A stretch of DNA of 64,000 nucleotides from an uncultured Alphaproteobacteria bacterium (lineage in GTDB: Bacteria > Pseudomonadota > Alphaproteobacteria > Micavibrionales > UBA1664), in assembly GCA_943789475.1 (NCBI GenBank), contig CALSUG010000006.1:199425-263424 (forward strand), given 5' to 3'. The position numbers and the translations under genes are program-made. The notes beneath the pieces were generated by a model. The model was not told the DNA's origin and did no database searches. It was given only the letters and a program-made list of their open reading frames with translations. Positions 8,044 to 48,173 of this stretch are shown here, in pieces. Numbering within the stretch: the first letter of the stretch is position 1; each line of letters opens with the position of its first letter.

Positions 8044-8090
8044 TCCTTAGACATTTGAACTTTATAAGTAATAAACACGTATATTTCACA

Positions 8091-8124
8091 AAAAGCAAGA
8101 GCGCAGTAACTTTTCTGCGCTCTT
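8091..8124 (-). terminator. rho-independent terminator after the adhesin gene
   Basis: 10-bp perfect stem AAGAGCGCAG / CTGCGCUCUU (8097-8106 / 8115-8124) with an 8-nt loop. On the minus strand it is followed by GCUUUUUG. Confidence 0.6.
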
Positions 8125-8143
8125 ATCCTTAGATTACAATACC

Positions 8144-11100
8144 TTAATAGACATCTATATGTCCCTGATCATAAAGATCTTGGACATCAAGGTTGTTAAT
8201 ATTAATACCTGAATGGTTTTCAATACGTGCAACATTATAAAAATCGTTACCATTTCCATCCGTATTCACCTGAACCATGGCATCACCACCAACATTCACG
8301 ATACGTACAAAATCTGTAATATCGTCATTGGCACCAAAACCTGAAATCACATCGATTAACGACAACACATCACCTTGCGCCAAATTGAAATCCATAATTT
8401 GATCTACGACATTGTTGTTATTTGCCTTGTCTGCATCAATTACAAAAACATCTGCCCCTATGCCACCCCAAAGTTGATTATTTCCTTTTTCACCAAATAA
8501 AACATCATTTCCCTGAGCACCAAATAATTTGTCATTACCTGTCCAGCCATAAATAGCGTCATTACCAATATTACCTGCAATAACATCATTGCCTGTCCAA
8601 CCAAACACCTGAGCGCCGTCAGTATCTTGTGTTTGATACGCCGCATGACCTCCAATTGTTGTATTAGGACCATGAATTTGATTACCGTAATCTGACGCAT
8701 CATTTTGTGTCTGAGTTACTTTAACCACTTTAATATCCAGCACTCCATAATCTTGGTCACCGTCTCCATCCTGAATACGGTATCCAAATTTTTCTCTATG
8801 GCTTGAGTTTGGAGAACCCTCTTCAGAAACATAAGCATATGAACCATCTTTAAACATATATAATTGCCCGTGATCACCCTGAACAACCATGGCATCACCA
8901 CCTTCGGCAAAATTATAAGTCTTACCACCGAATGTAACTGATTTAATTGTATTTGGTCCTTCAACACTCAACACATCACGACCATTATTATCTTGGTTAT
9001 GATTTGTTATAACGTTACCAATCGTTGCCCAATCACAAGACCATAACGTCACAACATCATCTTTCGCAACAGGACCTGTATCCTGCACTCGAACAGTCAA
9101 CGTTGTTGTTGAAACATCTCCATCATCATCTCTTGCACAAATACGGAAATTCAGATTCACACGCTCATTCGGATTTGTTGCAGATGCATTATCCAACGGA
9201 CCAAACTGTTTAAACTGATAAGAACCGTCTGGATTCACCTTCAGTGTAAATATTGTTTGACCACCCGCTTTACCCACATATGTGTTACCTGCACCATTAA
9301 CAGTCACATTGATTGGCACACCACCTGATGATAAATTGCCACCAGCCATAGCGCCTGTCGCTGTAAAGTGACCTCCTGCTGGTATACAGAATTCACCAGG
9401 ACCATCACTTCCAAAATCAGCCACAATAGTACCGTTAATGACATTTGTATTTGTCAAATCACGCTCATACGATATTGGTGATCCAGGTTGTGTAATCACA
9501 GGAACATCATCCGCATTAACAACCAAACGTAAGTTTGTATTTGTTGTCGCAGTATTATTGTTCAAGTTAAAGTCTGTATCTGTTACACGTTCAGTCGACG
9601 TTACAGATAATGTTAAATTAAACGTACCTGTTACACCGTCTGGAACATTGATCTTCAAGTTATTCAACTGATTTTGTGTCAATTCCCAAACGCCTGGTGA
9701 TACTTCCGTCCCTTTATTCAGAGAAGCTCCATTTGGTATTCCAGAAATAGTAATCTTACTCAAACTTTCAGAACCATCTGTATCTGTTAATCCTGCAGAA
9801 ACATTCAAGTTAATCGATGTTCCTTCTTCACCAGAAGCATTTGATGCCGTCAATGTCGGTGCATCTGCAACTGCATCAACAATGATCTCACCAGCTGTCG
9901 ATGTCGACTGTGTCTGGTTCGTTGTTGTGTTTGTTGATGTCGCAGTAACCGTTAGGCCTGTCAAATCAACATCGCTGTCTGCTGGCGGTGTAAAACGCAA
10001 GCTATTTGCAAAATCTTGACCCGCAGGCATCGTGATTGTCCACGTCCCTGTCGCAGCATTGTAAGAACCACCTGCCAAGTGTGATAGACCCCATGATGAT
10101 GGTATACCGCTCACTTCAACTGTTAATTGTTGTGGTGCATTACCATTCAATGACGCTGTGATTGGAACCAATACTGAGCCATCTTCAAGAACTTGAGCTG
10201 AACCTGATCCATTTGCACCAAATGTTACTGATGGTGGCTGGTTATCTGGGTTCACCGCAATAACAACACTATCTGTTGATGTCGCAGTATTATTGTTCAA
10301 GTTAAAGTCATTATCCGTCACAGATTCTGTTGATGTTACTGACACACTCAATGTCACGTTACCGTTACCATTTGCTGGCGTGTTCAAGCGAACATTATTC
10401 AACTGACCTTGTGTTAATTCCCAAACACCTGGTGATACTTCTGTTCCTTTGTTCAAGCTGTAACCAGCTGGAACACCAGAAATAGTCACTTTACCAAGTG
10501 TTTCAGAGCCATCTGTATCTGTTAATGAGTTCGACAAATCAATCTTAACTGATTGACCTGCAACCACACTCTTATCAGAACCAGCATCAATAACCGGCGC
10601 ATCTGCAACTGCATCAACAATGATCTCACCAGCTGTCGATGTCGACTGTGTCTGGTTCGTTGTTGTGTTTGTTGATGTCGCAGTAACCGTTAGGCCTGTC
10701 AAATCAACATCGCTGTCTGCTGGCGGTGTAAAACGCAAGCTATTTGCAAAATCTTGACCCGCAGGCATCGTGATTGTCCACGTCCCTGTCGCAGCATTGT
10801 AAGAACCACCTGCCAAGTGTGATAGACCCCATGATGATGGTATACCGCTCACTTCAACTGTTAATTGTTGTGGTGCATTACCATTCAATGACGCTGTGAT
10901 TGGAACCAATACTGAGCCATCTTCAAGAACTTGAGCTGAACCTGATCCATTTGCACCAAATGTTACTGATGGTGGCTGGTTATCTGGGTTCACCGCAATA
11001 ACAACACTGTCTGAACTTCCTGCTTGATTATTACTCAAATTAAAATCGTTATCCGTTACAGATTCCGTTGAGGTTACACGAACTGTCAATGCAACATTAC

Positions 11101-14100
11101 CGTTACCATTTGCTGGTGTGTTTAATTGCAATCCAGCCAAATCGCTCTGACTAACCATCCATGTTTGCAATCCACCAGAAGTTGTAACCAGACTTCCTGC
11201 AGACAAACTATATCCAGTTGGAATACCTTCAATAAATACAGCACTTAAAGTTTCAGAACCATCTATATCTGTTAGTGAATTTGTGATGTTCAAAGCAACT
11301 GATTGGCCAGCAACAACACTACTATCAGATCCTGCATCAATAACTGGCGCATCTGCAACAGCATCAACGATGATTTGAATAACCTCAGTAATTGATGCGT
11401 TTGTGTTTGTTGTTGGTGCAAATGCATTTGCAGTTACATTAATTCCATTCAAATCAACATCACTATCCGCTGGCGGTGTAAATGTTAAACCGCCTGTATA
11501 GTCAACACCCGCAGGCATCGTAATTGTCCATGTCCCTGTCGCAGCATTATAAATCCCATCCACATTACCAATTGTCCATGACGGATCAATTCCAGAAACA
11601 GTAACCGTCAACACTTCTGTGTTGTCGCCTGTAATTGTTGCAGAGAACGGTACAAATACAGAACCATCTTCAAGAACCTGATGTGTACCATCAACATTCA
11701 ATGTCGGTGGGTTCGCAGTATCCGCAATCACAACGTTTAATGTTTGCGTATTTGTTGCCGTATTATTTGTTAAATCAAAATCATTATCTGTCACAGCCTC
11801 AGTTGATGTTACAGAAACCTGTAAAGGAACAGATCCACTAAAGTTCTGAGGTGTATTCAAACGTAATCCAACCAAATCAGATTGAGTAACAGACCAAACA
11901 CCTGGTGATACTTGTGTACCCGCAGTCAAACTAAATCCAGTTGGCAAACCAGAAATTGTAACATTACCAAGTGATTCAGAACCATCTGTGTCCGTTAAAG
12001 CGTCCGAAATATCCAGTGCGATTACTTGACCTTCTAAACCATTTGCGTTGTTAACATTTAGTACAGGCATATCAGCCACGGCATCCACGATAATTTCAGA
12101 TGGCGCACTATTATTAACACTATCACCTGTTTGTGGTTGTGTTGCCGTTGCAGTCAACGTCAAACCAGTCATATCAACATCACTATCCGCAGGTGGCATG
12201 AATGTTAGACCACCAGTATAGTTCTGCCCTGCAGGCATCGTGATTGTCCATGTCCCTGTCGCAGCATTATACGTACCATTATTTACACCTGCCGTAACAG
12301 TCCATGTTGAATCGATACCTGTAAGAGTAACTGTCAAAACCTCTGTTGGATCATTACCGTTTAACCCAGCCGTAAAATCAACAAATACTGAACCATCTTC
12401 AAGAACTTGATGTTGACCATCAATGTTCACAGATGGTGGCGTTGCGTTATTTGTTACAGTTACGCTTAAAGTATCTGTTGACGTTGCCGTGTTGTTTGTT
12501 AGGTCAAAGTCAGTGTCTGTAACACTCTCTGTCGCCGTTACAGAAACAGAAAGATTAAACGTTCCAATTCCACCAGCAGGAATATTCAACTGAAGTCCTG
12601 ACAAGTCAGATTGCGAAACAGACCAAACACCTGGTGACACTTGTGTACCCGCCGACAAGCTATATCCTGCAGGTAAACCAGAGATAGTAACATTACCAAG
12701 AGATTCAGATCCATCTGTGTCTGTTACTGCGTTAGTAACATTCAACGCAATACTTGATCCTGCAACACCAGCGATATCAGCGGCATCAATAGTTGGAGCA
12801 TCTGCAACCGCATCTACAACAACTTGTGTTCCTTCACTATCCGTTGCTGTTGTGCTATTACCGGGCTGTGTTGCTGTTGCTGTAACAGTCAACCCTGTTA
12901 AGTCAACATCACTATCAGCTGGTGGTGTAAATGTTAAACCACCAGTATAATCCTGCCCTGCAGGCATTGTAATTGTCCATGTGCCTGTCGCAGCGTTGTA
13001 TGCACCATTATTGGCACCAGTCGCGATTACCCATGATGGGTCAACACCAGTTAACGTAACCGTCAACACTTCTGTTGGTGCTGCATTTGCGGAAAGAGCA
13101 GCTGAAAAATCAACAAAGACTGAACCATCCTCAAGAACTTGATGGGCACCATCAACAGTCACTGTTGGTGGGTTAGCATTACCAACTTGCAAGTTAACTG
13201 CAAGTATATCTGTTACTGTGGCTGCGTTATCCGTTAAGTCAACCTCTGTATCTGTTGGAGTATCTGTCGCAGTAACAGACACAGATAAATTAAAATTACC
13301 CACGTAATGAAGTGGTGTGTTTAATTGTAATCCAGCTAAATCAGATTGAGAAACAAACCAAACACCTGGATAAGTTTGCGTTCCTGCAGATAAACTAAAT
13401 CCTGCTGGAACACCCGAAATTGTTACATTGCCAAGTGATTCAGAACCATCAGTATCTGTCACGGCATTTACAATATTCAGAGCGTAACTTGTTCCACCAA
13501 CACCCGTTACATCAGACGTCGTTAATGTTGGTATATCAGCCACAGCATCAGTCACGACATCAACAAGAGTAGAAATAGATGTGTTTGATCCATCAGATTC
13601 TGTCGCTGTCGCTGTCACTTGAATGTTCGTCATATCACCATCACTGTCAGCAGGAGGTGTCAAAGTTAATGAACCGCTATAATGTTGGCCAGCTGGCATT
13701 GTGATCGTCCATACGCCTGTTGCTGCGTTATATGTACCATTATTTGTGCCCGCACTTACTCCCCAACTTGCGTCCAAGTTAGAAACTTGAACAGATAATG
13801 TTTCGGAACCATCTGTATCTTCCAATGTCGCAGACACATCCAATGTAATAGATCCATCTTCCTTAACGATAGGATTATTCACAATCAATGAAGGAGCATC
13901 AGGAACTGGGGAGAACGTCACATTAAACGGCATCGACGTTGTATTTTCATTATTTGTAAAATCAAACTCTGTATCCGTTGGTGTATCTTCATTAACAACA
14001 GTCACCCCCAAATTAACCGTACCACTGTAATCTGTTGGTGCTGTCAATTCCAGGCCTGGGACATCGGCAAGAGGAACGGTCCACGTTCCATTTCCATTAT

Positions 14101-15595
14101 CAACACCATGATTAAGAGAAAAACCCGCTGGCATTCCAGTAATAACAACAGATGTAATTGATTCGGAACCATCTGCATCGATTAGACTTGTTTGAACATT
14201 AAGCGCGACCGGATTATCTTCAAAACCCGAAACATCCGTTGCACTCAAATTAATTGGATCCGCAACCGCATCAACAACAACATCAAACTCATCTGTTGTC
14301 ACAGATGTATTGCCCGTCCCAGAATCAGTTTGCGTTACAGTCACAGTTGGGCGCATATCCTCATCACTATGTAGTGGTGGTGTAAACCTAGGCCCTGATG
14401 TTAACTGCTCACCTGGCAGCAAATTAATTGTCCACGTTCCCGCAACCGCATCAAATGTTCCGTTAGCCGTTGTTGGATCAGTTAAATCTGGTGTCCAACC
14501 TGGCTCAATATCACTAATTACAATACTAATAGAATCTGAACTATCAGACGGTGCAGCATAAATACCAAGATCTACCGTATTATCCTCATAAAGAGATACA
14601 GCATTAACAACAAGTGCAGGAGGGCTCATTGGAGCATTAAACACGAACTGTTCATCTTGAACCGTTGGACGATCAAACGCCAATTCAGTCACACCAATCG
14701 CGCCAATCGCGTCATTATTACCCGCAGTACCACCATTTACGGAACTGCCAAACCCTGCCCCCGTGTTACCCAAGGCATTTGCAGCGTTATCTCCTGCTGC
14801 AGGCTCTATTGAGGCTAGTGTTTGCGCAATATCACCTGACGCAGGTTCAATCGCAGCTATTTCCTCTGCTTTAGGCTCAACAACAGGTACCACAGCCACA
14901 ATTTCTTCAACTGGTTCTACCATCACAGTTGTTAAAATATCTGTTACAGATATAACCGTTCCATCCGCCAATGTCATTTGAGGAATATCTGTTGCATTTT
15001 CAATAGCGGAAAAATTCGTTAAAATTGTTTGCGTGCCATCATTAAATGAAATAACCAATTCACCTTTTTCATTCAGTTGAGCATCTTTTATATCCGCCTG
15101 ATTAAAATCAGATACATATGTTTCACCTTCAACCAATGTATAATTTAGAGATAAGGCATCCATTTCAACATTCGGTTTTGAAAGCAAATTGACAAATTCG
15201 TCCCCCGCAGCAGGAGTTATGTTATCTAACGCGCTCGCATCCGCAACAAGCGTATCTGAAGGTGAAGAGAGACCTTCTGCAAGCTTTGTTAGATTAATCA
15301 CCTCACCATCACTCAGTTCAATATTTTGAAATTTTGAACTTCCGAGCGCTTCAGTGTAATTATCGACTGTTAATGTTTGACCATCCGTAAATGTAATCAA
15401 GAGCATGCCACCCTCAATGATTTGCATACCCGATATATCCTGCAAACCAAAATTAAAGTGTGTTGGTTCTTCTGTCGACAATGAGACAGATACGTTACTG
15501 CCTTCACATGGTTTTTCGACTTGAAATGTCGTACTTGTTGCAGTGCATTCTTGTGCGGATGTATCAAATGTATTCGTCATTTTTTCTCTCTTCAT
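8144..15595 (-). CDS. giant repeat adhesin, T1SS substrate (LapA/RTX-like; T1SS-143-type repeats plus C-terminal secretion domain)
   Basis: 2483-aa acidic, Cys-poor ORF with seven ~245-aa modules, each containing VDAVAD...[15 protein letters not shown].PAG(F/Y)SL. C-terminal RTX nonapeptides ([42 protein letters not shown]) are followed by a [12 protein letters not shown]...DFVRIV type secretion domain. It sits next to tolC, the ABC exporter and hlyD. Confidence 0.9.
   Translation of the reverse strand: [2483 protein letters not shown]
9500..14300 (-). repeat. in-frame tandem array of ~738-nt (~245-aa) modules inside the adhesin gene (approximate limits)
   Basis: The VDAVAD motif recurs seven times. 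The modules diverge progressively toward the 5' end of the gene. Confidence 0.8.
9861..11008 (-). repeat. two adjacent modules sharing a 410-nt block that is 100% identical
   Basis: 9861-10270 equals 10599-11008 base for base by my reading (offset 738 nt). The first mismatches are at 9860/10598 and 10271/11009. Confidence 0.85.
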
Positions 15596-15827
15596 TTCAG
15601 AGCCTCAAAAGGCCCAAACTCCCATTTGTTAAAGCAAAAAACCACCTAAATTGCAAATAAATAGTTTTCTGACTGTGCTTTTATATACCATAACAGCAAT
15701 TAAGTCAATTTTTATGTGAATAAACTTATCGTTCCTACATATATTTCTTCTAACATTTTTTCATTTTAAGGATAAAATATAAATAAAACTTTAATGCAGG
15801 GCGATATATATGAAAGCCATTATTTAC

Positions 15828-18678: not shown

Positions 18679-20244
18679 CTAATATCGAACTATATAGGGG
18701 TGTAGCTCAGTTGGTAGAGCACCGGTCTCCAAAACCGGGTGTCGCAGGTTCGAATCCTGTCGCCCCTGCCATTTTTGATAAGACGTCAAATTTACCAACA
18801 AATCAAACGGCGTTTTCAAAGTATAGCAAAGCTTTGCGCCCTTTAGTTCCAAGTTCGAAAACACATATCCGATTAATTGGCGTTTTTCGTCCGTTGTCGA
18901 ACGATCAAAAATGTTTAGCGCCTTTGAAGCTATAGAAACCAAGGTACTGACTGCCATTCGAAATTCTTCATCACCTGAATTATGGCGTTCTAATTGTTCC
19001 TGCACTTCCTGCCTGTGCTGGATTAGCTGACCATGCTTTCTGTCATACATATCCTTTGTAATACTCTTATCCAGATATTCATCCAAAAGTACATCAAGCC
19101 GTCTTGTTAAAATGCCATGTTCTTTGTTCAAGGCAGTAATAGACGCCTGATAATAATCTTGTTCGTTTCTATGTGTCTTTTTCAGGCTTTCTAATATTTC
19201 GGTTAGCAATTCTTCAGGAATTTGAATTGACGCAAAAATACCCCTGAGCTGATCCAAAACAATATTTTCTTTAGTGTATAGCTTTTTATCTGGATTTGCA
19301 GGATCACGATTGATTAAATAGATATGCCTTCCCTTCTTCAAATCGCAACTGACAAGCCTGCCAGATACAGCGCATTTGATAAGCCCACGAAAGATATATG
19401 GATATTTTGTTTCAACTACAGCTTGATTACGTCCACGACCTTCCCTGACAGCCTGACAAGCATCAAATAAATCTTTGCTAATTAATGGGTCATAAGCATG
19501 CGGATATAATTGCCCCTTTACCTTCATCATCCCATAATAAAATGGGTTTTGTAATAATCTATGGATTGTTTGCGTATAAACTTTTTTGCCCTTTAAGGTT
19601 CGCAAGCCCCAATCATTTGCTTTTCTGACCAGTTCAGCGATTGAATAAATGCCCTTAGAATATTCTTGAAAAAGGTTTCTGACTAAAAAGGCTCGTTCAG
19701 GGTCAATAATAACCGTGTTTTTTCGTCTTTCTGGATCAGGCGCATTTAAATACCCTAATGGCGCTGATCCTGTGCATTCACCTTGTGAAAGCTTTTGTTT
19801 GAGGCTTCTTTTGACGTTATCGGACAAACTATCAGTGTATGATTGCGCCATGACAACACCCATATTCCACATAAGCTTTTGCATACTATTGGAATCTTTA
19901 TTGAGGACATTACTTTCTTTAACAAAATGAAGTTCCAAAATGTCTTTTTCGAATAATTCGTTTAATACGGGAGTTTCTTTGAAACTACGTTGCAGGCGGT
20001 CAACTGTATCAACAACCAGCGCAATTTTTTCCTTTTGCGCTTTGATAAAATCAATCATCCGCATAAATTCAGGCCGTTCGCCTTTTGTTGAAGATTCAAT
20101 CGCCGTGAATTGCTTTATGATTTGAAAATTATTTCGGTCTGCATACTGCCTTAAATTCGAAATCTGGGCATCCAGCGAATGACCGTCCTCTTGTTCCTTT
20201 GTCGACACACGGGCTAAAATTACGGCTTTCATGGTCAGCGTCAC
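18679..20244 (-). CDS. large serine recombinase (integrase)
   Basis: 521 aa. N-terminal resolvase catalytic domain (AVILARVSTKEQ, DRLQRS), then recombinase, zinc-ribbon-like and coiled-coil regions. The last ~31 codons are antisense to tRNA-Trp. Confidence 0.9.
   Translation of the reverse strand: MTLTMKAVILARVSTKEQEDGHSLDAQISNLRQYADRNNFQIIKQFTAIESSTKGERPEFMRMIDFIKAQKEKIALVVDTVDRLQRSFKETPVLNELFEKDILELHFVKESNVLNKDSNSMQKLMWNMGVVMAQSYTDSLSDNVKRSLKQKLSQGECTGSAPLGYLNAPDPERRKNTVIIDPERAFLVRNLFQEYSKGIYSIAELVRKANDWGLRTLKGKKVYTQTIHRLLQNPFYYGMMKVKGQLYPHAYDPLISKDLFDACQAVREGRGRNQAVVETKYPYIFRGLIKCAVSGRLVSCDLKKGRHIYLINRDPANPDKKLYTKENIVLDQLRGIFASIQIPEELLTEILESLKKTHRNEQDYYQASITALNKEHGILTRRLDVLLDEYLDKSITKDMYDRKHGQLIQHRQEVQEQLERHNSGDEEFRMAVSTLVSIASKALNIFDRSTTDEKRQLIGYVFSNLELKGAKLCYTLKTPFDLLVNLTSYQKWQGRQDSNLRHPVLETGALPTELHPYIVRY
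18696..18771 (+). tRNA. trnW: tRNA-Trp (anticodon CCA)
   Basis: AGGGGTG acceptor stem pairs with CGCCCCT. D-loop AGCTCAGTTGGTAGAGC. Anticodon arm CCGGT-CTCCAAA-ACCGG. T-arm GCAGGTTCGAATCCTGT. Encoded GCCA 3' end. 76 nt. Confidence 0.95.
18765..18773 (+). repeat. left junction core (attL) CCTGCCATT
   Basis: Identical 9-mer at 25530-25538. Covers the last 7 nt of tRNA-Trp plus 2 nt. Confidence 0.55.
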
Positions 20245-20250
20245 CCCTAT

Positions 20251-22263
20251 CTAAATCTGTCCAAACATATGCCGTAAAGTTTTAACGGCACTACTTGGTG
20301 GAAGTTTTAATATTTCTTCGTAAAGGCTTATGGTGATAGAGCAATATTTTGGGCGATCCTCAAAAGAATGGTTGTCTTCAAGTATTAAAGCAGCGTCTTC
20401 GCCGTGTGCCTGCCCTACAGCACCAAACACTTCTTCTAGAAAAGCTAAAACATCTTCTTCGTTTGGAATTTCATTAAACTGAGAATATTCACTTATAACC
20501 CTTCCTGTCAGACCTAACTCCCGATCAATAAGCTCTTGTGGCAAATCAGAAGTATCAACCCCCACATCTGAACCATGAGCGTAGCTATAACATTTTTGTG
20601 GGTTGGCCATCTCATAATGTTTATATTGATCAACCAGCAATTGCGTGTATTCTAAAAGTGCTTCTCCCGATGTATATGGAAGGCGCTGATAAAGAATTTC
20701 GATTATAATAGGCAAAGATACCTTCCTAACCTCTGACATACTTTGTCCTCTCTCGACAGCTTGTCTGTATGCCATAACAATTTGATCATATCCTTCAGGA
20801 CTAGCTTCTTTAATAGCTTGATAAATAGGTGTCTGAGATAAAGTTTTTTCAAATTTATTTAGTTCAGATGGCAAGATATTTGTGATAGCAACATCACTAT
20901 AATCAGGATATCTGGTGATGAAGTTGCCACTAATTAATTCTTCATGGCTTGGCTCCCACATTTCACTTGGAGGTGTATCAAAAATACGATCAACAAATTG
21001 TTGACTAATGCCTTTTGAGAGTAAATATTTGCTGTCCATTGCATAATCAGAATAAAAATCAGATTGCTTCGCACCAGGAAAATCATATTGATGAAACCCA
21101 AGTTTGGCGTTTTTTGCTATTAGCCTTTCTTTCCCTGCAGCGTAAGGAATAATACAGGCGCTAGAACATTCGTAAGATGTATAAGTTGATAATCCTTTAG
21201 ACTCTATCAATGCCGCTAATTTTCTTGCAGATTCAACCCTACCACCAATGCTATTAAGATGTATTAATTTTATTGCTGGGTGAGCCTCCAAATATTCTTC
21301 TGTTTTTTCTGTTGCCCCAAAACCAATATACCCTGAAAACTCTAGTTCTGTAGCATCCCTTAAAACACGTAGCTGAAATTGTCCCATAGGATCATTGCCT
21401 GAACCTATTAACCAAAACTCCTTCACTTGAGGCAGGGTTGTTGTAAAAATAGTACTTATAAAGCCAAGCATCCCTAATATGGTTAAAGCTTGCGCAACCT
21501 TACCCCATGATTTTTTTGAACGTTTTGAATAATTGTTAGCAGAGCGCCATATACCTACCGCCTGCCAGATGGTGACTACAAAAATAACAGCCCACATGAA
21601 AATAAGAGCATAAGCTGTAAATTGAGGGCTTTCATCAAAACTAAGATCGTAAGTCAAAAGCGAAACAACGATGCCAAATAAAATGTTAACTAAAGCACCA
21701 TTAATCCAATAACTTCGTACGAGAGAATGTTCGCCGTACCAATGTTTCAAAAAATAATTTTTATGATTATCGGGTAGTGGAATGTGTTCTTCAATAATTT
21801 CTACTTTATCTTCTGTACCCGCACATTTTTTGTATGTTTTAATTGCTAGAAAAACACCGCCAATAACGCCAATAATGTTCCATGCAGCGCCAATATTATC
21901 GGATATACTTGCAAAGATATCTTCTAGTGCGCCTACAATTCCAACTACAATTGTAAGAATAAAAATTGCCGCTATAAACGACAATGTTTTACGCACAGTT
22001 TCTTTCGAAATACTTTTTTTCTTAAAAACTATTTTTTTAGATAGAAAGGAAATACCCTTAAAAATATATCCATCCCCCCAAATCCAAAAACCCAGCCAAT
22101 ACATTAGCAACGGCAGGTTAAGTACAGTGAATGCGCCTAAAAATGTCAAAAAATTAAACGATGAATATTCTTGAGCTAGGCCGCCAGCTATCAGCATAGT
22201 AACAATGCTCCATAAAATACAAACAGAAATCTTAATTTTTTTTGATTTTGTTGGTGTCGGCAT
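20251..22263 (-). CDS. polytopic membrane protein with ClpP/crotonase-like periplasmic domain (COG3904-like) and helical C-terminal domain
   Basis: 670 aa with multiple N-terminal TM segments and HWYGEHSLVRSYWINGALVN...WQAVGIWRSANNY. This is followed by IHLNSIGGRVESARKLAALI...CSSACIIPYAAGKERL, resembling ClpP-fold serine hydrolases. The function is unknown. Confidence 0.55.
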   Translation of the reverse strand: MPTPTKSKKIKISVCILWSIVTMLIAGGLAQEYSSFNFLTFLGAFTVLNLPLLMYWLGFWIWGDGYIFKGISFLSKKIVFKKKSISKETVRKTLSFIAAIFILTIVVGIVGALEDIFASISDNIGAAWNIIGVIGGVFLAIKTYKKCAGTEDKVEIIEEHIPLPDNHKNYFLKHWYGEHSLVRSYWINGALVNILFGIVVSLLTYDLSFDESPQFTAYALIFMWAVIFVVTIWQAVGIWRSANNYSKRSKKSWGKVAQALTILGMLGFISTIFTTTLPQVKEFWLIGSGNDPMGQFQLRVLRDATELEFSGYIGFGATEKTEEYLEAHPAIKLIHLNSIGGRVESARKLAALIESKGLSTYTSYECSSACIIPYAAGKERLIAKNAKLGFHQYDFPGAKQSDFYSDYAMDSKYLLSKGISQQFVDRIFDTPPSEMWEPSHEELISGNFITRYPDYSDVAITNILPSELNKFEKTLSQTPIYQAIKEASPEGYDQIVMAYRQAVERGQSMSEVRKVSLPIIIEILYQRLPYTSGEALLEYTQLLVDQYKHYEMANPQKCYSYAHGSDVGVDTSDLPQELIDRELGLTGRVISEYSQFNEIPNEEDVLAFLEEVFGAVGQAHGEDAALILEDNHSFEDRPKYCSITISLYEEILKLPPSSAVKTLRHMFGQI

Positions 22264-22281
22264 AAGGCTGTGTCCTTGTTT

Positions 22282-23424
22282 TTATACTGTTTTCAATAAT
22301 TCTGTTTTTACAATATCGTCTTTTATCAAGGGTATAAAGTCCCTTAATTGCGATTTGATAATGTTCAATGAACGAAAACGGGGGTTTTTGTCATCTTGAT
22401 CCAATTTTTTTACATCAGCCTTCAGGCGATAAAACTGGCTATCATTTAACCCTAGCAATAACTTTGCACCCCTTATGCCATTTTGTTGACATGTGATTAT
22501 AAACCCTATTAGGGATGAAATACTTTGCGGTCTTTTATTTGGAAATATATTGTTAATATTGGCAATCAATTTTTCAGTAGAATGGCTATCAATATTCATC
22601 ATATAAAGTCCGTTTGTAATTTCCTGCCAATAATGCATTAAAATCGCCCGTGACAAATTACCATTATATAATCCCTTGAATGTAATGGGTTGAGTACTGT
22701 TTAGCGTTTTAAGCAGGGATTTTATTTTTCGTGATTGCAACCGTATTTCAAACCGTAAAACTTCAGGCTTTGTCATGTTTTTGAACATATCGACTTGGCA
22801 ATCATAATCGTTTTCAGCGCCCCTTTTATCACCGCACTTGCTCGCTTGTTCCAAATCCTTCACCTTGTCATACAGGGCAATTTCAAATGTGCTGGCATGG
22901 TATTTGACCATTTGCCCACCATTGCGAAAATCAGTTTTATTCAAATCTAATTTTTTATTCATATCAACCTTTTCCAACGTTTGAATAAGGACATGACACG
23001 GCGCATCCCGTTCCAAAAGGATGTTTTTTGAATAATGAATTGCCGATATTTTCGCATGAATAAGAAATTCGGCGCTGGTCTCAATTCCCATGCGTTTCAA
23101 GGCATCCAATAGAGTTTGAATGATATTATCAAAATCATTGTCTTGCAATTCTTCAAAATTATTTTGAAACATCAATTTGGGTGCTGAAAATTCAATCTTC
23201 ATCCATATTGACTTGGCGTATTCACCAAATGGTTTTTTAAATAGCGTAATGCGTGGCAAATACCCTTGTAATTTTTCTTTTTTAGTTGGGTTGTAGTGGC
23301 ATTTTATAATACCTTTATCGCCATACATAGGATTGCTTGCAAAACCTGCGTGCGGTGTAAACCGATCAGGTTCATTGATTTTAAAATCACCATAATTAAG
23401 GTTAATCACGACCGTATCCAACAT
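22282..23424 (-). CDS. putative rolling-circle replication initiator (phage/plasmid gene II/X, CRI-like)
   Basis: 380 aa. The N-terminus MLDTVVINL, the block IEFSAPKLMFQNNFEEL and AKISAIHYSKN resemble the filamentous-phage/plasmid replication protein family. Assignment is from memory of the family pattern only. Confidence 0.5.
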   Translation of the reverse strand: MLDTVVINLNYGDFKINEPDRFTPHAGFASNPMYGDKGIIKCHYNPTKKEKLQGYLPRITLFKKPFGEYAKSIWMKIEFSAPKLMFQNNFEELQDNDFDNIIQTLLDALKRMGIETSAEFLIHAKISAIHYSKNILLERDAPCHVLIQTLEKVDMNKKLDLNKTDFRNGGQMVKYHASTFEIALYDKVKDLEQASKCGDKRGAENDYDCQVDMFKNMTKPEVLRFEIRLQSRKIKSLLKTLNSTQPITFKGLYNGNLSRAILMHYWQEITNGLYMMNIDSHSTEKLIANINNIFPNKRPQSISSLIGFIITCQQNGIRGAKLLLGLNDSQFYRLKADVKKLDQDDKNPRFRSLNIIKSQLRDFIPLIKDDIVKTELLKTV

Positions 23425-23695
23425 TTCTACAACCTTTATTCAATACATCTTTTAATTTTTGGAAAATAGCGTCTTCAATGGCCTTGCTGGCCTGTTTATT
23501 AATCGGATGATAGATATTAAATATCTGCCCTCCTGATTTGCGTGTCGGATACGTTAAACGGTATCCCGTTTGATCTAACTTTTCATGGATAGCAATACCA
23601 CTGACATAAACGGCATCATTTAAAACCAATGACGCAAAGGCAATTAAACCCGATCTGGCTGGCACTAGGTTAATATCAATATTACTGATTATCAT
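23402..23695 (-). CDS. SpoVG-like protein
   Basis: Starting from the internal Met (MIISNIDINLVP...), the sequence aligns by eye with SpoVG: AFASLVLNDAVYVSGIAI..., YPTRKS.G, and the HPIN motif followed by IEDAI. The track ORF start at 23830 is probably too far upstream. Confidence 0.55.
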   Translation of the reverse strand: MIISNIDINLVPARSGLIAFASLVLNDAVYVSGIAIHEKLDQTGYRLTYPTRKSGGQIFNIYHPINKQASKAIEDAIFQKLKDVLNKGCRNVGYGRD

Positions 23696-23906
23696 CCTGC
23701 GCCTGCCTGTTTTTGCGTTTTGTCGGGATGATTTGTTCCCGTTCGTTAATCGTGACCAGCAATGACATGAAACCTGATAGATTTTGATATGATTCAGCAA
23801 CCTGCCTGTCTGAAACAGGCTGACTTGCAATCTTATTCAAAGCTTTTGAAAATTTGTCATTAAATACCATCCCTATTGTATGCGCATAAATGGCATAGGA
23901 TTGCAC
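23682..23906 (-). CDS. small hypothetical protein (first gene of the Rep operon?)
   Basis: 74-aa ORF overlapping the SpoVG-like start by 14 nt. No recognisable motif. Its position is compatible with an Xis/regulator role, but this is unproven. Confidence 0.3.
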   Translation of the reverse strand: MQSYAIYAHTIGMVFNDKFSKALNKIASQPVSDRQVAESYQNLSGFMSLLVTINEREQIIPTKRKNRQAQDDNQ

Positions 23907-23983
23907 TTAAATCACGGGGTACGAAAAACAGCTATTTCGTACTAAACTATAGAAAATAGAATAATATTAATTTATGATTATTC

Positions 23984-24412
23984 ATGCCTTATAAAATAGC
24001 ACTATTATTACTTTTTGTATTCATGTCCTCTAAAGCCTCTAATGCAGGACTATGCACAAGGGAACTTCAAGAAAAAGCAAATGTTTTTGAGGTTAACTGC
24101 GCAATGGATAAGCGTTTTTGTGAGGTTAACGGCTATATGTCGTCGAACCTATTAAAAACAGGCTATTCAGGTAATTTAGCTTTTTTTCAACAAACACCTG
24201 AAAAATTAAGGACACACAAAAGAGATACTCTAACAATTAGAACATCAAGAGGTGACACTCAAGGCACTGAAACACCTGAAGGGTATTTTGAAGCTATGAA
24301 ATTTGCAGAAAAAAGAATGCTGAACGAACTTGAAGGTGACCTCACATATTTTGACGCTTTAACAGGAAAAATTGTTGATGCTCCAAAAATAGAGTGCATT
24401 CCAACGAAGTAA
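23984..24412 (+). CDS. secreted Cys-containing hypothetical protein
   Basis: 142 aa with a signal peptide (ALLLLFVFMSSKASNA) and no recognisable domain. Confidence 0.45.
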   Translation: MPYKIALLLLFVFMSSKASNAGLCTRELQEKANVFEVNCAMDKRFCEVNGYMSSNLLKTGYSGNLAFFQQTPEKLRTHKRDTLTIRTSRGDTQGTETPEGYFEAMKFAEKRMLNELEGDLTYFDALTGKIVDAPKIECIPTK

Positions 24413-24418
24413 TGCTAC

Positions 24419-25354
24419 TTATTTGATTTGGCGCAGTCCAGCGCTAGACAGCTTTTCTTTCATGGTTTCTAGGGGATATTCACGGTCAAGCATAATGGCT
24501 GAAATAATACCGAATGACAGATTTTTTAAATGCCCTTCATCACCTGTTTTTTCAGCATTCATATTCCATGACACGGCTTTTGATAATATAAAATCTTCAT
24601 CATTTTTCGGTTCTTCTTGCATTTCAGTGCGCACAACAAGAGAGCCTAGCTTTATTGATTCAAGAGTGCTTTTGTCTTTATCCCGTTCTTTGACACATTC
24701 TTTTTCCCATTTTTGGATTGCATCAATAGATACGCCACAGGCATCGGACAAATCGCATTCAGCAACGTATTTTTCTTTACCTTGCCCCATCAATTTATAA
24801 AGATGCTGAACTGTAATCCAGCGCAATTCCTGTAAATCGTATGCATCACCTTGTTTGCGAATGTTGGTTGGTTCTACAAGCCATTCCACTTGTCCTTCAT
24901 TAAGCGCATACAAAGATTTTTCTAAGCCTAAGCGCCATGCCATGCGTCCATATTTCCCAAATGAGTTATGAAGTATTGCACCTATTGCTAGGCGTTCGCA
25001 TATTAATTTTTGATCACCTTCAAAGATATCTTCAGATAAGTCGGGATCATACCACATGGTTTCATTTGTATGCATATTACAGGTTTTTGCATCAATCCAA
25101 CCATCCTTGGATTCCGCAATTTTTTGATATAATCCGAATATCTGATTTTCTGACCATTCAGTCAAAATGCCTGACAATTCACCTACTTTATTTAAGGCCT
25201 GATATGCTTTTTCCTGCTTACCTTTTTCAGATTTTTTTCCATGTTTGGGATCACTATCACGATGCAATTTAACCAACTCATCAACAATATCATGACAGCG
25301 CTGGATTTGTTCGTCCGTTAATTCAGGTCTTTGGAATACTTTTTTTTTATTCAT
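24419..25354 (-). CDS. hypothetical protein (island cargo)
   Basis: 311-aa uninterrupted ORF with no recognisable motif. Confidence 0.5.
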   Translation of the reverse strand: MNKKKVFQRPELTDEQIQRCHDIVDELVKLHRDSDPKHGKKSEKGKQEKAYQALNKVGELSGILTEWSENQIFGLYQKIAESKDGWIDAKTCNMHTNETMWYDPDLSEDIFEGDQKLICERLAIGAILHNSFGKYGRMAWRLGLEKSLYALNEGQVEWLVEPTNIRKQGDAYDLQELRWITVQHLYKLMGQGKEKYVAECDLSDACGVSIDAIQKWEKECVKERDKDKSTLESIKLGSLVVRTEMQEEPKNDEDFILSKAVSWNMNAEKTGDEGHLKNLSFGIISAIMLDREYPLETMKEKLSSAGLRQIK

Positions 25355-25529
25355 ACAACTTTAACTTCTATTACACTAATTGTGCTTTATACTCTTAAAG
25401 TATATAACATCATTTTATTAAACTTATTAACACAGATACAAACCAAATCAAGCAACTCTAAAACCCTTGTTATAGGCGGATAATAAAATCACATCTTGAT
25501 AATAATTCGTTCGTAATGTATCCAAAATG

Positions 25530-25538
25530 GCCTGCCAT
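25530..25538 (+). repeat. right junction core (attR) CCTGCCATT
   Basis: Identical to 18765-18773. It is embedded in AATGGC-CT-GCCATT. Confidence 0.55.
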
Positions 25539-25695
25539 TCAGTCCATCAATCCATCCGACATAGAGAATACGACCTGACAAGCGCGGCATTCCGCGCGAT
25601 GTTGTCATGTGCATCAAGAGGTGACCCCGAGAGAATGTTGTAAAAAGGTGTTTTCTTACCCATTTTCTCTACGCGCAATATTCCACCCGCTGGTT
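25531..25695 (+). repeat. dispersed intergenic repeat, copy A (165 nt)
   Basis: 147/165 identical to copy C without gaps (hand alignment). GC hairpin GCGCGG-CATT-CCGCGC at 25581-25596. Confidence 0.85.
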
Positions 25696-25700
25696 TGCGT

Positions 25701-25826
25701 TTTCCCTGTTTTACAGGGAATTAACAGGGAAATTTTTATTTTTATGAATGCGTTTTGAAATAAACACCAGAGAATTCAGTGCCTACAGACGAAATTATGC
25801 ATTTAGAACAGGGAAAATACAGGGAA
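25701..25826 (+). promoter_or_regulatory. cluster of five ACAGGGAA 8-mers (one inverted), candidate protein-binding iterons
   Basis: TTCCCTGT-ttt-ACAGGGAA (25701-25719), plus ACAGGGAA at 25723, 25808 and 25819. The two direct pairs are each phased 11 nt apart. The last copy ends 1 nt before the stop codon of recombinase 2. Confidence 0.5.
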
Positions 25827-25827
25827 T

Positions 25828-27363
25828 TCACACGTTTTGGATTATCTTAAAACTGCTCAAGATTGCGGACCCAACATAATCACGAGAACACCCTTCGCGT
25901 CTTGCAATTGCGGCAAGAGCTATACCGTCAAAATGTTCATCACGCCATATGGTACCTTGAATAAATTTCTTCAACGCTTTGGCGGGCATATCAAATAGAT
26001 CACGTCCCTTGGCTTTAATAATTTGCGATCCGGCCTGCGCTCGATGCAATTCATAAGGCACGTTCACTACTGCTTCGTCTTGAGAGCAAGTCAAGTGGAT
26101 GTTTAGATGTTTTTGAACAATTTTTGATAGCGGAGTAAGGTCGAAATTGAGGATCAATTGATCCTGGTGAACCATGGCTTTAGTTAAGAGGCACCGCACA
26201 AGATCATAAGACGGAATTGTTGCTTGGTGTTCTAAAAAATATTTTACAGCACTCCCTTCACTGTCATTAATCCATTTAGATAAATTTTGTCTTATTGCGT
26301 TTTCAATTGTAGATTCGATTTCATGAGCAGGAAATCGTGCCCGCAAATAATTAGGATGTCTCTTATCGATTGTCAAAGCATTATTACAGTAATAGCGATA
26401 ACGTTTGCCATTCCCCTTATTTGTAAAAACAGGTGTATAAGGACTGTCGCTTTCATCAAAAATCAAACCTGTCAGTAAATTTCGATGCTTTTGCTTTTTC
26501 TTGCCTCTGTCATCTGGCGCATGGTTTTGTAATAGATCTTGTACAGCATCCCATAATTCTTGAGAAATTATAGCATCGTGAAGCCCATCATGAATTTTAT
26601 CAATGTGTCGAATTTTCCCGATATAGACTGGGTTAGTGAGTATACTGTGTAATGCACCGCGACTAAAATAATGCCCGCCATATTGAACGCCCTTTTGAGA
26701 TATACGAACACGGCTTTTAATTTTGCGCTGCTTTAGTGTATCTGTGAGTTTTCGCAGGAATCCCAACTCTAGATACAGTTCAAAAATATGTTTTGCGATC
26801 GGGGCATCTGTGTCATTTACAATTAACCGTCGATCACCAATATCAAACCCAAATGGAGCACGCCCACCTTGCCACATCCCTTTAGCTTTTGACGCTGCGA
26901 TTTTATCACGGATGCGTTCTCCAGACACCTCTCGTTCAAATTGTGCAAAGGATAATAAAACATTGAGCGTTAATCTTCCCATTGATGTAGTTGTGTTGAA
27001 CGATTGGGTAACACTTACAAATGTGACATCGTGGGCATCGAATACTTCGACTAATTTTGAAAAATCAGTTAGAGATCTGGTCAAGCGATCAATTTTATAA
27101 ACGACGACGGTTTGAATTTTACCCGCCTTGATATCACCCATTAATCGCATGAGCGCTGGACGTTCCAGTGACCCACCCGAAAAACCGCCGTCATCGTAAT
27201 AATCTTTAGACGCTGTCCAACCCTCCGACTTTTGGCTGGTGATGTAGGCCTTACAAGACTCTCTTTGAGCATCAAGGGTGTTGAACTCCATGTCTAATCG
27301 TTCATCGGTAGATTTACGGGTGTATATGGCACAGGTTTTTTGTATAGTTTTCATAGCAACCAT
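25828..27363 (-). CDS. large serine recombinase (second copy, different family member)
   Basis: 511 aa with CAIYTRKSTDE (catalytic Ser region), YKIDRLTRSLTDF, then recombinase and zinc-ribbon-like regions. Confidence 0.9.
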   Translation of the reverse strand: MVAMKTIQKTCAIYTRKSTDERLDMEFNTLDAQRESCKAYITSQKSEGWTASKDYYDDGGFSGGSLERPALMRLMGDIKAGKIQTVVVYKIDRLTRSLTDFSKLVEVFDAHDVTFVSVTQSFNTTTSMGRLTLNVLLSFAQFEREVSGERIRDKIAASKAKGMWQGGRAPFGFDIGDRRLIVNDTDAPIAKHIFELYLELGFLRKLTDTLKQRKIKSRVRISQKGVQYGGHYFSRGALHSILTNPVYIGKIRHIDKIHDGLHDAIISQELWDAVQDLLQNHAPDDRGKKKQKHRNLLTGLIFDESDSPYTPVFTNKGNGKRYRYYCNNALTIDKRHPNYLRARFPAHEIESTIENAIRQNLSKWINDSEGSAVKYFLEHQATIPSYDLVRCLLTKAMVHQDQLILNFDLTPLSKIVQKHLNIHLTCSQDEAVVNVPYELHRAQAGSQIIKAKGRDLFDMPAKALKKFIQGTIWRDEHFDGIALAAIARREGCSRDYVGSAILSSFKIIQNV

Positions 27364-27508: not shown

Positions 27509-28108
27509 ATGTCTCAAGAACCTATAGGGTGGTTTTTAATCGATAGTAACAACGGTCGTCACGGTCCTTTTGATTGGGTTATTAGTAGTGCTCCTGCGCC
27601 GCAAACCGCAAAATTATTACCATCTCACTTCAAACACCATGACGATATTTCCGCCATAAAAATGCAGGGTTGTTATAGTCTTATGATTGGCTTGCCTGAT
27701 GATTTAAATGTAAAATGGGACGCTGTGAAGGTTAAGAACTCTCCGATTGAATGGATGGCTGTTAATTCCTCTAAACCGCTTTGTGATACTGGGTATTCAT
27801 TGCTTATCCAGACAAGTAATGAATGGGCGCAGGCTCATATCGATGATGATCAAGATGTGGTCAAAGAATTGTTACTGACCGAGACTGAAACGCTGTTACA
27901 GAACAGTATTGGTAATGCTGATTATATCAGCCTACATCGTTGGCGTTATGCGAATACAGTTATTGGTAGTGATCAAGAAAGCCAGATGCACTTTTTAGAT
28001 GAAATTAATAACCTCGCAGCGTGCGGTGACTGGTGTATTAAAGGGAGTGTTGAATCTGCATATTTAAGCGCGTTATCTCTCGCTGAAGCGCTGAAAAAAC
28101 ACTTATAG
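27509..28108 (+). pseudogene. 5'-truncated renalase-like NAD(P)/FAD-dependent oxidoreductase (C-terminal ~60%)
   Basis: HGPFDWVISSAPAPQTAKLL...HRWRYA...CGDWC matches the C-terminal part of ~330-aa renalase-family proteins. The N-terminal dinucleotide-binding GxGxxG region (~130 aa) is absent, and recombinase 2 lies immediately upstream. Confidence 0.6.
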
Positions 28109-30284: not shown

Positions 30285-30408
30285 TTTACCACAGAAAATA
30301 TGTCTGACGTGTAACCTGCCATTCACGTGGCGGAAAAAGTGGGAAAAAGTATGGAGTGAAGTGAAATATTGTTCGGAAAGATGCCGGCGCCATAAAGGAA
30401 AAAAATGA
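30268..30408 (+). CDS. DUF2256 zinc-ribbon-like small protein (46 aa; absent from the ORF track)
   Basis: [46 protein letters not shown] carries the CxxC...PFxWRKKW...YCSxxCR pattern of DUF2256. It overlaps the photolyase stop in another frame. Confidence 0.7.
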
Positions 30409-47577: not shown

Positions 47578-47753
47578 GACTACAACCACTGCCATTCAGT
47601 CCACCAATCCATCCGACATAGAGAATACGACCTGACAAGCGCGGCTTTCCGCGTGGTGTTGCTATGCATGTCAAAAGGTGACGCCTAGAGAATGTTGTAG
47701 AAAGGTGTTTTCTCACCCATTTTCTCTACGCGAAATATTTCACCCTCTGGTTT
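47578..47753 (+). repeat. dispersed intergenic repeat, copy C
   Basis: See copy A. It includes the 10-nt upstream extension GACTACAACC shared with copy B. Confidence 0.85.
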
Positions 47754-48173
47754 TAAAGCATAAAAAATAATCATGAGACTGATATCTAATCAACTGTAAA
47801 AAACTAACTTTTCTCGACGCCCTACTCATACTCATCTTTCCTAGTGATAACTATCCTGAACCATATTTTTTAACCAGCCTACACTATAACGGGTGTCCAA
47901 TTTCCATCGAATTAACAATTTCTGACCACAGTACTTTGTGAACATATAATCCACAATATCGCTTCTTAATTAGCTCCCTAATTTCATCTAAGGAAGTTAT
48001 TCCACGAATGCCTTCCATCGTAATAAAGATAACTCTTATAGCACAACAAATTCATATAAATGATACGGGTGTTGGCAATACATTTTTGACATGTTAATTT
48101 TACATACTCAACATGATAGTATGCAGTATGAAAATAAAATTGACTCATATATTTTTATTTTCTATAAAAATAT

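Follow-up and report, generated by a model that had tools for sequence, protein, structure and literature searches.

Can a large serine recombinase use the 3' end of a tRNA gene as its integration site? The question is raised by a stretch of DNA (the window; 64,000 nucleotides [nt] of contig CALSUG010000006.1, assembly GCA_943789475.1) in which a tRNA-Trp gene is abutted by a recombinase gene of this class; all coordinates given here are window positions. The tRNA-Trp gene (anticodon CCA; 18696–18771, + strand) is intact, has an encoded CCA end and was identified both by ARAGORN and from its sequence, in agreement with an earlier note on this DNA that had anchored a mobile element there. The element at its 3' end is 6,766 base pairs (bp) in length (18774–25539) and is flanked by two copies of CCTGCCATT. 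From its sequence, it is very probably an integrative element that was inserted by serine-integrase recombination between an element site (attP) and a chromosomal site (attB) at the 3' end of tRNA-Trp. This reading, which the earlier note had put forward together with an attP dyad, is supported by controls on the dyad, by a full-length structural match of the recombinase, by empty sites in relatives and by an integrase tail that is restored when the element ends are joined.

Element ends, integrase and empty site

The left copy of the 9-bp common core lies at 18765–18773 (+), with a probable crossover dinucleotide CT at 18766–18767 (tRNA positions 71–72), and the right copy lies at 25531–25539 (+), with the probable crossover CT at 25532–25533. 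The earlier note was accurate as to the left copy and the sequence of the right dyad arm, ATCCAAAATGGC, and placed the right copy one nucleotide too far to the left (25530–25538); the arm therefore occupies 25520–25531 and not 25519–25530. Joined in silico, the element ends read ATCCAAAATGGC-CT-GCCATTTTTGAT, in which 11 of 12 positions are complementary around the CT as previously described, and all other dyad centres within the repeat give 6 pairs or fewer. This dyad is far beyond chance. Among 9,503 in-silico joins of 9-mer direct-repeat pairs lying 2–20 kb apart in the window (taking the best of ten centres for each), 11/12 is reached by the real pair only and a score of 10 by four pairs; when random right ends were combined with the true left end, 21 of 200,000 joins scored 11. 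For the integrated junctions the scores are only 4/12 and 7/12, no more than 6 pairs are contiguous, and the earlier claim that neither has arms longer than 6 nt is borne out. The joined ends thus show what is expected of an attP: an imperfect dyad, a 2-bp crossover and very short identity between attP and attB. The predicted circle junction sequence is GTATCCAAAATGGCCTGCCATTTTTGATAAGACG.

A third copy of CCTGCCATT (30315–30323) was considered as the bound of a tandem second element containing a second recombinase gene (described below) and was rejected. It lies inside a complete DUF2256 gene (Pfam positions 1–40 of 40, E = 1.5e-22) and yields no dyad on joining, and for these reasons is regarded as a chance match.

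The large serine recombinase (integrase) gene (18679–20232, −) encodes 517 amino acids (aa) from the ATG at 20232, as publicly called, or 521 aa from the GTG at 20244. The protein is 100% identical to public protein P0001 and contains the Pfam domains Resolvase (PF00239, E = 4.9e-23) and Recombinase (PF07508, E = 6.3e-16, residues 182–270). R8 and S10 are invariant across 37 integrase homologues, and a profile match was obtained to the catalytic domain of the TP901-1 integrase (E = 1.3e-11). An AlphaFold2 model of the protein has a mean predicted local distance difference test score of 77.9, with strands at 295–321 and long helices at 340–419 in the putative zinc-ribbon region and a tail (487–517) that is predicted to be disordered. 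In Foldseek searches, the full-length model aligns to the SPbeta, Bxb1, PhiC31 and LI integrases (E = 3e-18 to 4e-10), with approximately 540 aligned columns for the first three (E = 3e-18 to 5e-15). These model-based results support a full-architecture large serine integrase, consistent with the 521-aa large serine recombinase that the earlier note had reported beside tRNA-Trp.

A metagenome collection was scanned for empty sites in the form of a tRNA-Trp 3' end followed by TT, and three of the 36 loci recovered were informative. In a Tara Oceans contig (L117) and a marine JGI contig (L135), tRNA-Trp is followed directly by CAGTCCACCAATCCATC; the resulting empty site, CCTGCCATT and then CAGTCCACCAATCC, has a single substitution relative to the sequence right of 25539. 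The flanks are 87% identical over 85 nt and 74% identical over 193 nt, and in L135 an arsC gene comes next and no recombinase is present. Because the sequence right of 25539 directly follows tRNA-Trp in these contigs, it is identified as the native flank, as the earlier note had proposed, and the predicted empty-site sequence is GTCGCCCCTGCCATTCAGTCCATCAATCC. In the third contig (L122), tRNA-Trp is followed by TTTGATAAGA and only a remnant encoding SYQKW; here, in a different organism, an insertion of this type has decayed.

The native flank (25540–25735, +) comprises the B half-site and an approximately 190-nt conserved non-coding stretch with hairpins. It is conserved among relatives (L135 and L117) though the neighbouring genes differ, and contains nested repeats (ATAGAGAAT, GAGAGAATG, TTTTCTC and ATTTTCTCT, in this order) and a GC hairpin. 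An Rfam search with the flank gave no significant match; it may be a small RNA, or a processing or terminator region co-transcribed with the tRNA. A second, approximately 88% identical copy of about 175 bp of this flank (compared with 25532–25722) is found at 47586–47762, with homology beginning exactly at the CT crossover (aCTGCCATTCAG) and neither a tRNA nor a P'-type motif to the left of it. The first copy has a further hairpin in common with L135 that is missing from the second. This second copy may have arisen in an old recombination event or through duplication of a functional unit.

The integrase tail and the excised form

The last 29 codons of the integrase gene after W488 (QGRQDSNLRHPVLETGALPTELHPYIVRY) are the antisense of tRNA-Trp, and the Trp codon TGG that precedes them is the complement of the tRNA CCA end. 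Integration also sets the integrase gene convergent with tRNA-Trp, with an mRNA that is complementary to it. When the element is circularised in silico, the integrase open reading frame (ORF) runs from the left end into 25531–25448 (−) and ends in KWQ-AILDTLRTNYYQDVILLSAYNKGFRVA and a stop codon, which makes the excised-form integrase 516 aa in length. On joining, a conserved peptide containing LDTLRTNYYQDVI takes the place of the tRNA-encoded tail, and the coding sequence of this excised-form C-terminus (25448–25531, −) was identified both by translation and from homologous tails. Because antisense reading from 25531 restores a tail that is conserved in relatives and in unintegrated forms, the right boundary of the element is independently confirmed.

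The same relationship is found in other members of the family. To locate distal ends, the sequence upstream of each integrase gene was searched for a TGG with the local core in common that starts a tail fitting the pattern W-x(2-5)-[DN]-x-[ILV]-R, and nine further elements with a clear single distal end were recovered, with cores of 6–12 bp and lengths of 5–11 kb. The conserved tail reappears on excision in silico of 10 elements that are independent of one another, located at tRNA-Trp, tRNA-Asn (four elements), tRNA-Glu, tRNA-Ser, tRNA-Pro, tRNA-Gln and tRNA-Arg; restored tails in the further elements include WLTILDTLRTKHYQDVI, WLSCFDTLRTRYYQDVI and WRHKIDTLRTTYQAEIL. The native tail is always lost on integration, and its replacement (3 to approximately 30 unrelated residues) is set by the tRNA. 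Two loci, L010 (distal sites at 630 and 2993) and L035 (4250 and 5560), have two candidate far ends each, with closely related restored tails, which suggests tandem or nested insertions at one tRNA.

In homologues that are not associated with a tRNA (L034, L043, P0050, P0059 and P0114), the native tail is contiguous with the gene. The contig encoding P0050 (L104) is 11,227 bp in length with a 30-nt terminal overlap, as is typical of circular contigs from k=31 assemblies, and so forms a circle of 11,197 bp in which attP is intact. Its gene order (integrase, attP, far-end genes, SpoVG, Rep) is circularly permuted with respect to integrated copies. Circular forms of the family therefore exist, and from the contiguity of native tail and gene in L104, L034, L043 and the others it follows that attP lies inside the integrase gene, approximately 28 codons before the stop.

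These circular relatives bear on the possibility that the copy in the window is a fixed, immobile remnant, unable to excise as a result of, for example, the exchanged tail or a missing directionality factor. All three integrase-bearing assemblies have the element in the same place (look-ups also gave a 1.6-kb contig, one end of which falls within the tRNA), no candidate directionality factor was identified, and L122 shows decay to an SYQKW scar beside tRNA-Trp. Set against this, the six large ORFs of the element and both of its att halves are intact, the dyad is nearly perfect and the gene set is equal to that of an element at another tRNA (L009, described below). We consider it somewhat doubtful that this copy has lost its mobility.

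A further possibility is that the excised-form tail is a functional protein module (a stability tag or directionality control), with integration acting as a switch. The regular removal of the tail by integration, in exchange for unrelated residues, would suit such a role. Conservation also extends past the expected 24-bp half-site (N-Y-Y-Q-D-V-I) with a nonsynonymous to synonymous ratio (pN/pS) of 0.55, although such ratios are rough because synonymous sites are saturated; this is weak evidence for a protein-level role of the tail. In distant relatives on viral contigs of IMG/VR (L087–L095 and L101; 29–41% identical), the uninterrupted native tails end in -LAA, -IAA, -VAA or -AAA, resembling ssrA tags, and integration would remove these ends. 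No ssrA-like tag is present on the excised-form protein of the tRNA-Trp element, the tail of which ends in -FRVA, and the tails of close relatives are heterogeneous (RVA, SQ, RI, AV, KAA, RAA), with no common end tag. Moreover, it is in the DNA itself that conservation is strongest (CGAAC, with Arg always encoded by CGA) and the tail is predicted to be disordered. A protein module of this kind is therefore judged unlikely; that tail loss or the antisense mRNA could damp integrase expression in the integrated state is speculation.

An attP within an element gene is also found in SSV1-type archaeal elements and in the integration-dependent immunity systems of mycobacteriophages such as BPs, both of which use tyrosine integrases: SSV1 integration splits the gene, while BPs integration truncates the repressor, removing a degradation tag. 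In the present element, by contrast, only the last 27–29 residues of a serine integrase are exchanged. It has in common with such integration-dependent switches an attP within an ORF and a C-terminus that is altered by integration.

Proposed recognition of tRNA ends across the family

A protein search returned 2,355 integrase homologues, most of them exactly 500 aa in length, with 95% query coverage. Their C-termini follow the pattern EW(L/R)xxxDSN(L/Q/P)RP, which is translated GGATTCGAACC, the antisense of the T-arm. In the best 120 homologues, this tRNA-antisense tail is present in 83, and 17 more stop within 5 residues of the Trp codon, mostly where the ends of tRNA-Gln or tRNA-Pro predict; approximately 100 of the 120 (the 83 and most of the 17) are thus integrated forms, and three have a different, mutually similar native tail. 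A scan using one genome per species gave 80 loci, at 58 of which the integrase ORF overlaps an antisense tRNA; 14 isotypes are represented, most often Asn and Glu (13 loci each), followed by Gln (8), Ser (5) and Arg (4). tRNA-like tails are present at four further loci, and 16 of the 80 have other tails, some being attP forms. At loci in Myxococcota, Chlamydiae and the candidate phyla radiation (CPR; L044, L066 and L074), the overlapped tRNA has no encoded CCA and the protein has no conserved Trp at this position, which ties the TGG codon, and its Trp, to the CCA end.

The hosts are mostly Alphaproteobacteria known from metagenome-assembled genomes (Micavibrio, Rickettsiales and Rhodospirillales) but also include Bdellovibrionales, Chlamydiae and CPR bacteria. 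A 38%-identical member is present at tRNA-Asn in a cultured Legionella adelaidensis strain, with CGAAC at +19–23 from the crossover centre. This member (strain NCTC12735; 47462–48961 of locus L147, 252461–253960 of NZ_LR134433.1) has SpoVG, helix-turn-helix (HTH) and tyrosine recombinase genes just upstream. At an internal attP-like junction (36495 of L147), the remnant of a P arm is joined through TGGCTC to a P' arm, which points to a tandem array. Although labelled as a plasmid, the record bears rho, uvrB and cydAB.

We propose that the original attB consisted of the tRNA acceptor and T-arm as the B' half-site (18742–18765, +), the CT at tRNA positions 71–72, and then G73-CCA with the downstream flank as the B half-site. 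The attP lies within the 3' end of the integrase gene, its P arm encoding SYQKW and its P' arm encoding the last 27 residues. Strand exchange at CT would rebuild an intact tRNA, the G73-CCA of which would then come from the element, and would at the same time swap the integrase's own C-terminal tail for the tRNA-antisense peptide. The P half-site at the left end of the element (GCCATTTTTGATAAGACGTCAAAT; 18768–18791, +) encodes NLTSYQKW of the recombinase on its − strand, and 36 family members retain its inner bases, GCCATTCT. The P' half-site at the right end (25508–25531, +) resembles the tRNA arm, with a difference in spacing: ATC at 25520–25522 and at 18754–18756 places GAT at +10–12 in both P' and B', while GTTCG at 25509–25513 places CGAAC at +19–23 in P' and GTTCG at 18748–18752 places it at +14–18 in B'. 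The CGAAC motif is therefore 5 bp further out in the P' arm than in the tRNA.

This spacing recurs throughout the family. All 13 element-side arms examined (10 reconstructed and three native) have GA(T/C) at +10–12 and CGAAC at +19–23, while 36 of 36 tRNA arms have GAT-like bases at +10–12 and TCGAAC at +13–18. Because the Arg codon of the tail is CGA in 13 of 13 cases while neighbouring third positions vary, the constraint acts on the DNA. According to the model for the LI integrase, attP base pairs 16–24 map onto attB base pairs 11–19, such that the zinc-ribbon motif is 5 bp inward in attB (PMC3783163); the CGAAC offsets of the family, for the tRNA-side half-sites only, fall within the attP and attB ranges of that model. 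We therefore infer that the zinc-ribbon domain would recognise tRNA bases G53-T54-T55-C56-R57, a universal T-loop motif read as CGAAC, and that the element carries the same motif at attP spacing. On the CCA side, a candidate outer motif (TCAAA at +19–23 in P and TCAAT at +14–18 in B), which in this element likewise resembles a displacement by 5 bp, was dropped, as it fails in Asn-type elements.

The shortest identities between the integrated junctions attL and attR, TGGCTC and TGGTCG, consist of TGG, the complement of the discriminator base and two further bases (TGG-N-NN), and in several elements identity stops exactly at this point. This minimal identity, together with the dyad axis, places the crossover at the two bases after TGG-N (CT at 18766–18767).

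The specificity of the family for particular tRNAs seems to be labile. The closest relative (P0002, on L106) has an 89%-identical integrase and different cargo (Fic and a helicase), is located at tRNA-Asn, and has a P arm that differs from that of the Trp element mainly in the central dinucleotide (TC versus AG). As the other close relatives (59–70% identical) are likewise all at tRNA-Asn, the Trp specificity looks like a recent switch. Lineages may shift tRNA type mainly by altering the central dinucleotide and the discriminator base, and movement between tRNA types would be feasible because tRNAs share both the CGAAC motif and the CCA end. A bolder version of this proposal, in which the T-loop and CCA end serve as a generic landing pad, the tRNA is chosen by the dinucleotide and discriminator and can be retargeted by one or two base changes, and the tail swap and antisense mRNA form a built-in stability or directionality switch, is advanced only tentatively, and we would not expect it to hold in full.

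The similarity between the P' arm and a tRNA T-arm could also arise in an ordinary tyrosine-integrase (Islander) tRNA island, in which GTTCG...ATC...CCTGCCA at the right end would represent the displaced 3' part of the original tRNA in decayed form, with the serine recombinase as a passenger or resolvase. The P' arm is indeed T-arm-like and lies exactly where such a fragment is expected, and the distant Legionella relative has a tyrosine recombinase gene beside the serine one. However, no tyrosine recombinase (Phage_integrase) was found among the ORFs of 18679–25354 in Pfam, PHROG and NCBIfam searches, nor does the region from 18.7 to 25.5 kb otherwise contain one. Only 7 nt of the tRNA are repeated, and the 19-nt tRNA 3' end has no second match even when 3 mismatches are allowed; the 5-nt insertion in the supposed fragment is constant in 13 elements at seven tRNA types, and acceptor stems are not copied. 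The right arm is contiguous with the integrase ORF in the circular L104 and also in L034 and L043, and so belongs to the element rather than to the chromosome, and no such fragment is present at the empty sites. An Islander-type origin is accordingly very improbable. Equally hard to credit is a low-specificity serine transposase (TndX/TnpX-like) whose association with tRNA ends reflects sampling or assembly, for although the family occupies many loci at 14 tRNA types, every tRNA locus is entered at the same sublocation and in the same frame, with TGG matching CCA and a core that always matches the local tRNA end, Pfam detects no DUF4368-type domain, and some of the 16 loci (of 80) with other tails are attP forms.

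Several observations nevertheless weigh against integration by a serine integrase at the tRNA-Trp end as set out here. A dyad score of 11/12 is unusual in the family: symmetry is weak in most relatives (4–8/12), and attB is asymmetric (2–5/12). P and B, the arms on the CCA side, have nothing beyond the inner GCCATT(C)T in common and no clear outer motif, and the crossover dinucleotide is placed by inference at CT to within 2 nt on either side. A zinc-ribbon domain is suggested by the structure model only, and the Pfam model Zn_ribbon_recom has no match in this integrase; the domain is precomputed for relatives P0062 and P0065, and the conserved cysteines number only three (C259, C287 and C296). 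The expression used in the distal-end search requires D-x-[ILV]-R and so partly fixes the placement of GAT and CG, while leaving free the exact CGAAC and its offset from W. The earlier note had suggested looking for the empty site and circle junction in sister genomes; the empty site was found in the two relatives described above, whereas exact matches to the integrase and to the binding protein beside it in protein look-ups yielded neither a circle junction nor an empty site from the same strain.

Cargo, neighbourhood and known systems

All long ORFs of the element are on the − strand, except for that of a 142-aa orphan. Next to the integrase gene is a gene for a 670-aa multi-pass membrane protein (20251–22263, −), a cargo protein with a weak ClpP/protease-like region (residues ~303–395; PHROG protease families, E = 2.6e-6 to 2.7e-4) and a homologue in L009. 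It is followed by genes for a 380-aa replication-initiator-like protein (22282–23424, −; phrog_702 'replication protein', E = 2.6e-7), a SpoVG-like protein of 97 aa as publicly called (23402–23695, −; Pfam SpoVG, E = 8.8e-9; NCBIfam, E = 5.7e-7), the 142-aa orphan, which has a signal-peptide-like N-terminus and no family matches (23984–24412, +), and a 311-aa orphan shared with L009 (24419–25354, −). The SpoVG-like assignment of the earlier note is firm, whereas its membrane ClpP-like protein and its Rep-like gene have weak support: for the latter, Pfam Phage_CRI is found in three of nine homologues (best E = 2.3e-5), and a profile search of the PDB with the Rep-like alignment gave no match. 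After excision, the circle would probably replicate through this Rep-like protein, which is putatively of the rolling-circle type. No PADLOC match was obtained for the cargo.

The gene content of the family is variable around a constant core. Over 11 delimited elements, the integrase is present in all, the SpoVG-like gene in nine and the Rep-like gene in eight, always in the order SpoVG, Rep, variable cargo, integrase. L009 (6,744 bp, at tRNA-Asn) has all five large genes in common with the Trp element. The earlier note had held that the same 6.8 kb at other boundaries would count against its reading; the case of L009 is benign, as it has the same element ends and is set apart by its tRNA alone. 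Cargo in other elements includes type I restriction-modification genes (L105), AbiE and Eco57I-type systems (Legionella) and Fic. L105 (integrase at 10001–11611, 58% identical, with HTH and histidine kinase genes downstream) has a tail that does not come from a tRNA and is not the native peptide either, and this element may have inserted outside a tRNA gene.

A second large serine recombinase gene (25828–27363, −) lies 290 bp past the right end. Its 511-aa product is 27% identical to the first, with a zinc-ribbon match under the Pfam cut-off. It abuts an amine-oxidase-like gene (27509–28108, +) that matches only positions 238–442 of a 443-position Pfam model and looks 5'-truncated; neither the N-terminal half of the oxidase nor an arsC gene like that of L135 was found in the window. 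An unrelated element may once have inserted here into a protein-coding gene and left this region as its remnant. On the other side, beyond the left neighbours of the tRNA (binding-protein and histidine-kinase genes), the − strand at ~8000–15600 (12926–20377 in L107) encodes a protein of 2,483 aa that contains weak RTX (HemolysinCabind) repeats; its gene is followed by one for outer-membrane efflux (OEP).

The integrase has the same order of catalytic domain, recombinase domain and (going by the structure model) putative zinc ribbon with a coiled coil as phage-type large serine integrases (LI/A118, Bxb1, PhiC31 and SPbeta), although its identity to solved integrases is only 13–18%. Short att sites, a 2-bp crossover, an imperfect attP dyad and an outer motif 5 bp inward in attB are likewise shared. 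In contrast to the phage-type systems, the target here is a tRNA 3' end rather than a protein-coding gene, the enzyme's C-terminus is altered on integration because attP falls within its ORF, and one half of attB is a universal tRNA motif, the other being poorly conserved flank. Islander/P4-type tyrosine islands resemble the present family in inserting at tRNA 3' ends, rebuilding the gene, placing the integrase beside the tRNA and leaving arrays and decayed scars; they differ in that the enzyme here is a serine recombinase, the identity block is 6–12 bp as opposed to 15–50 bp or more, and the crossover is at positions 71–72.

Tycheposons and VEIME elements are likewise small, integrative and self-replicating, the former being located at tRNA genes. 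In general layout (tRNA integration, a site-specific integrase and its own replication genes) the element may correspond to a tycheposon. In the accessible parts of these descriptions, 27 of 937 tRNA-associated elements in the tycheposon preprint carry a large serine recombinase, without att details, and module 3 of the marine VEIME satellites is dominated by serine recombinases; no att sites, gene-tRNA overlap or homology are given there for either set of enzymes. As far as can be compared from those descriptions, the SpoVG-like and gpII/CRI-like Rep genes of our element differ from the primase-helicase modules of tycheposons and VEIME elements.

In 2014, the authors of Islander explicitly described tyrosine integrases as the sole enzymes using tRNA genes as integration sites, and a large survey of large serine recombinase targets does not mention tRNA (PMC10083194). 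No account of a serine-integrase family at tRNA ends, of attP within an integrase ORF or of T-arm mimicry was found in the open-access literature. Judged by sequence, the element is a serine-integrase integrative element, a known kind, with a target class and an att architecture that would both be new and that recur many times in public data; the family to which it belongs is apparently widespread and undescribed.

The overlap with tRNA genes explains a common annotation oddity, namely recombinases ending in DSNxRP. The integrases are also possible tools, as their attB would already be present in any bacterium encoding CCA-ended tRNAs. With more than 2,000 homologues detected, the family would be an exception to the rule that only tyrosine integrases use tRNA genes, and would provide a many-times-replicated confirmation of the 5-bp difference between attP and attB half-sites; it also hints at how site specificity can shift between tRNA types.

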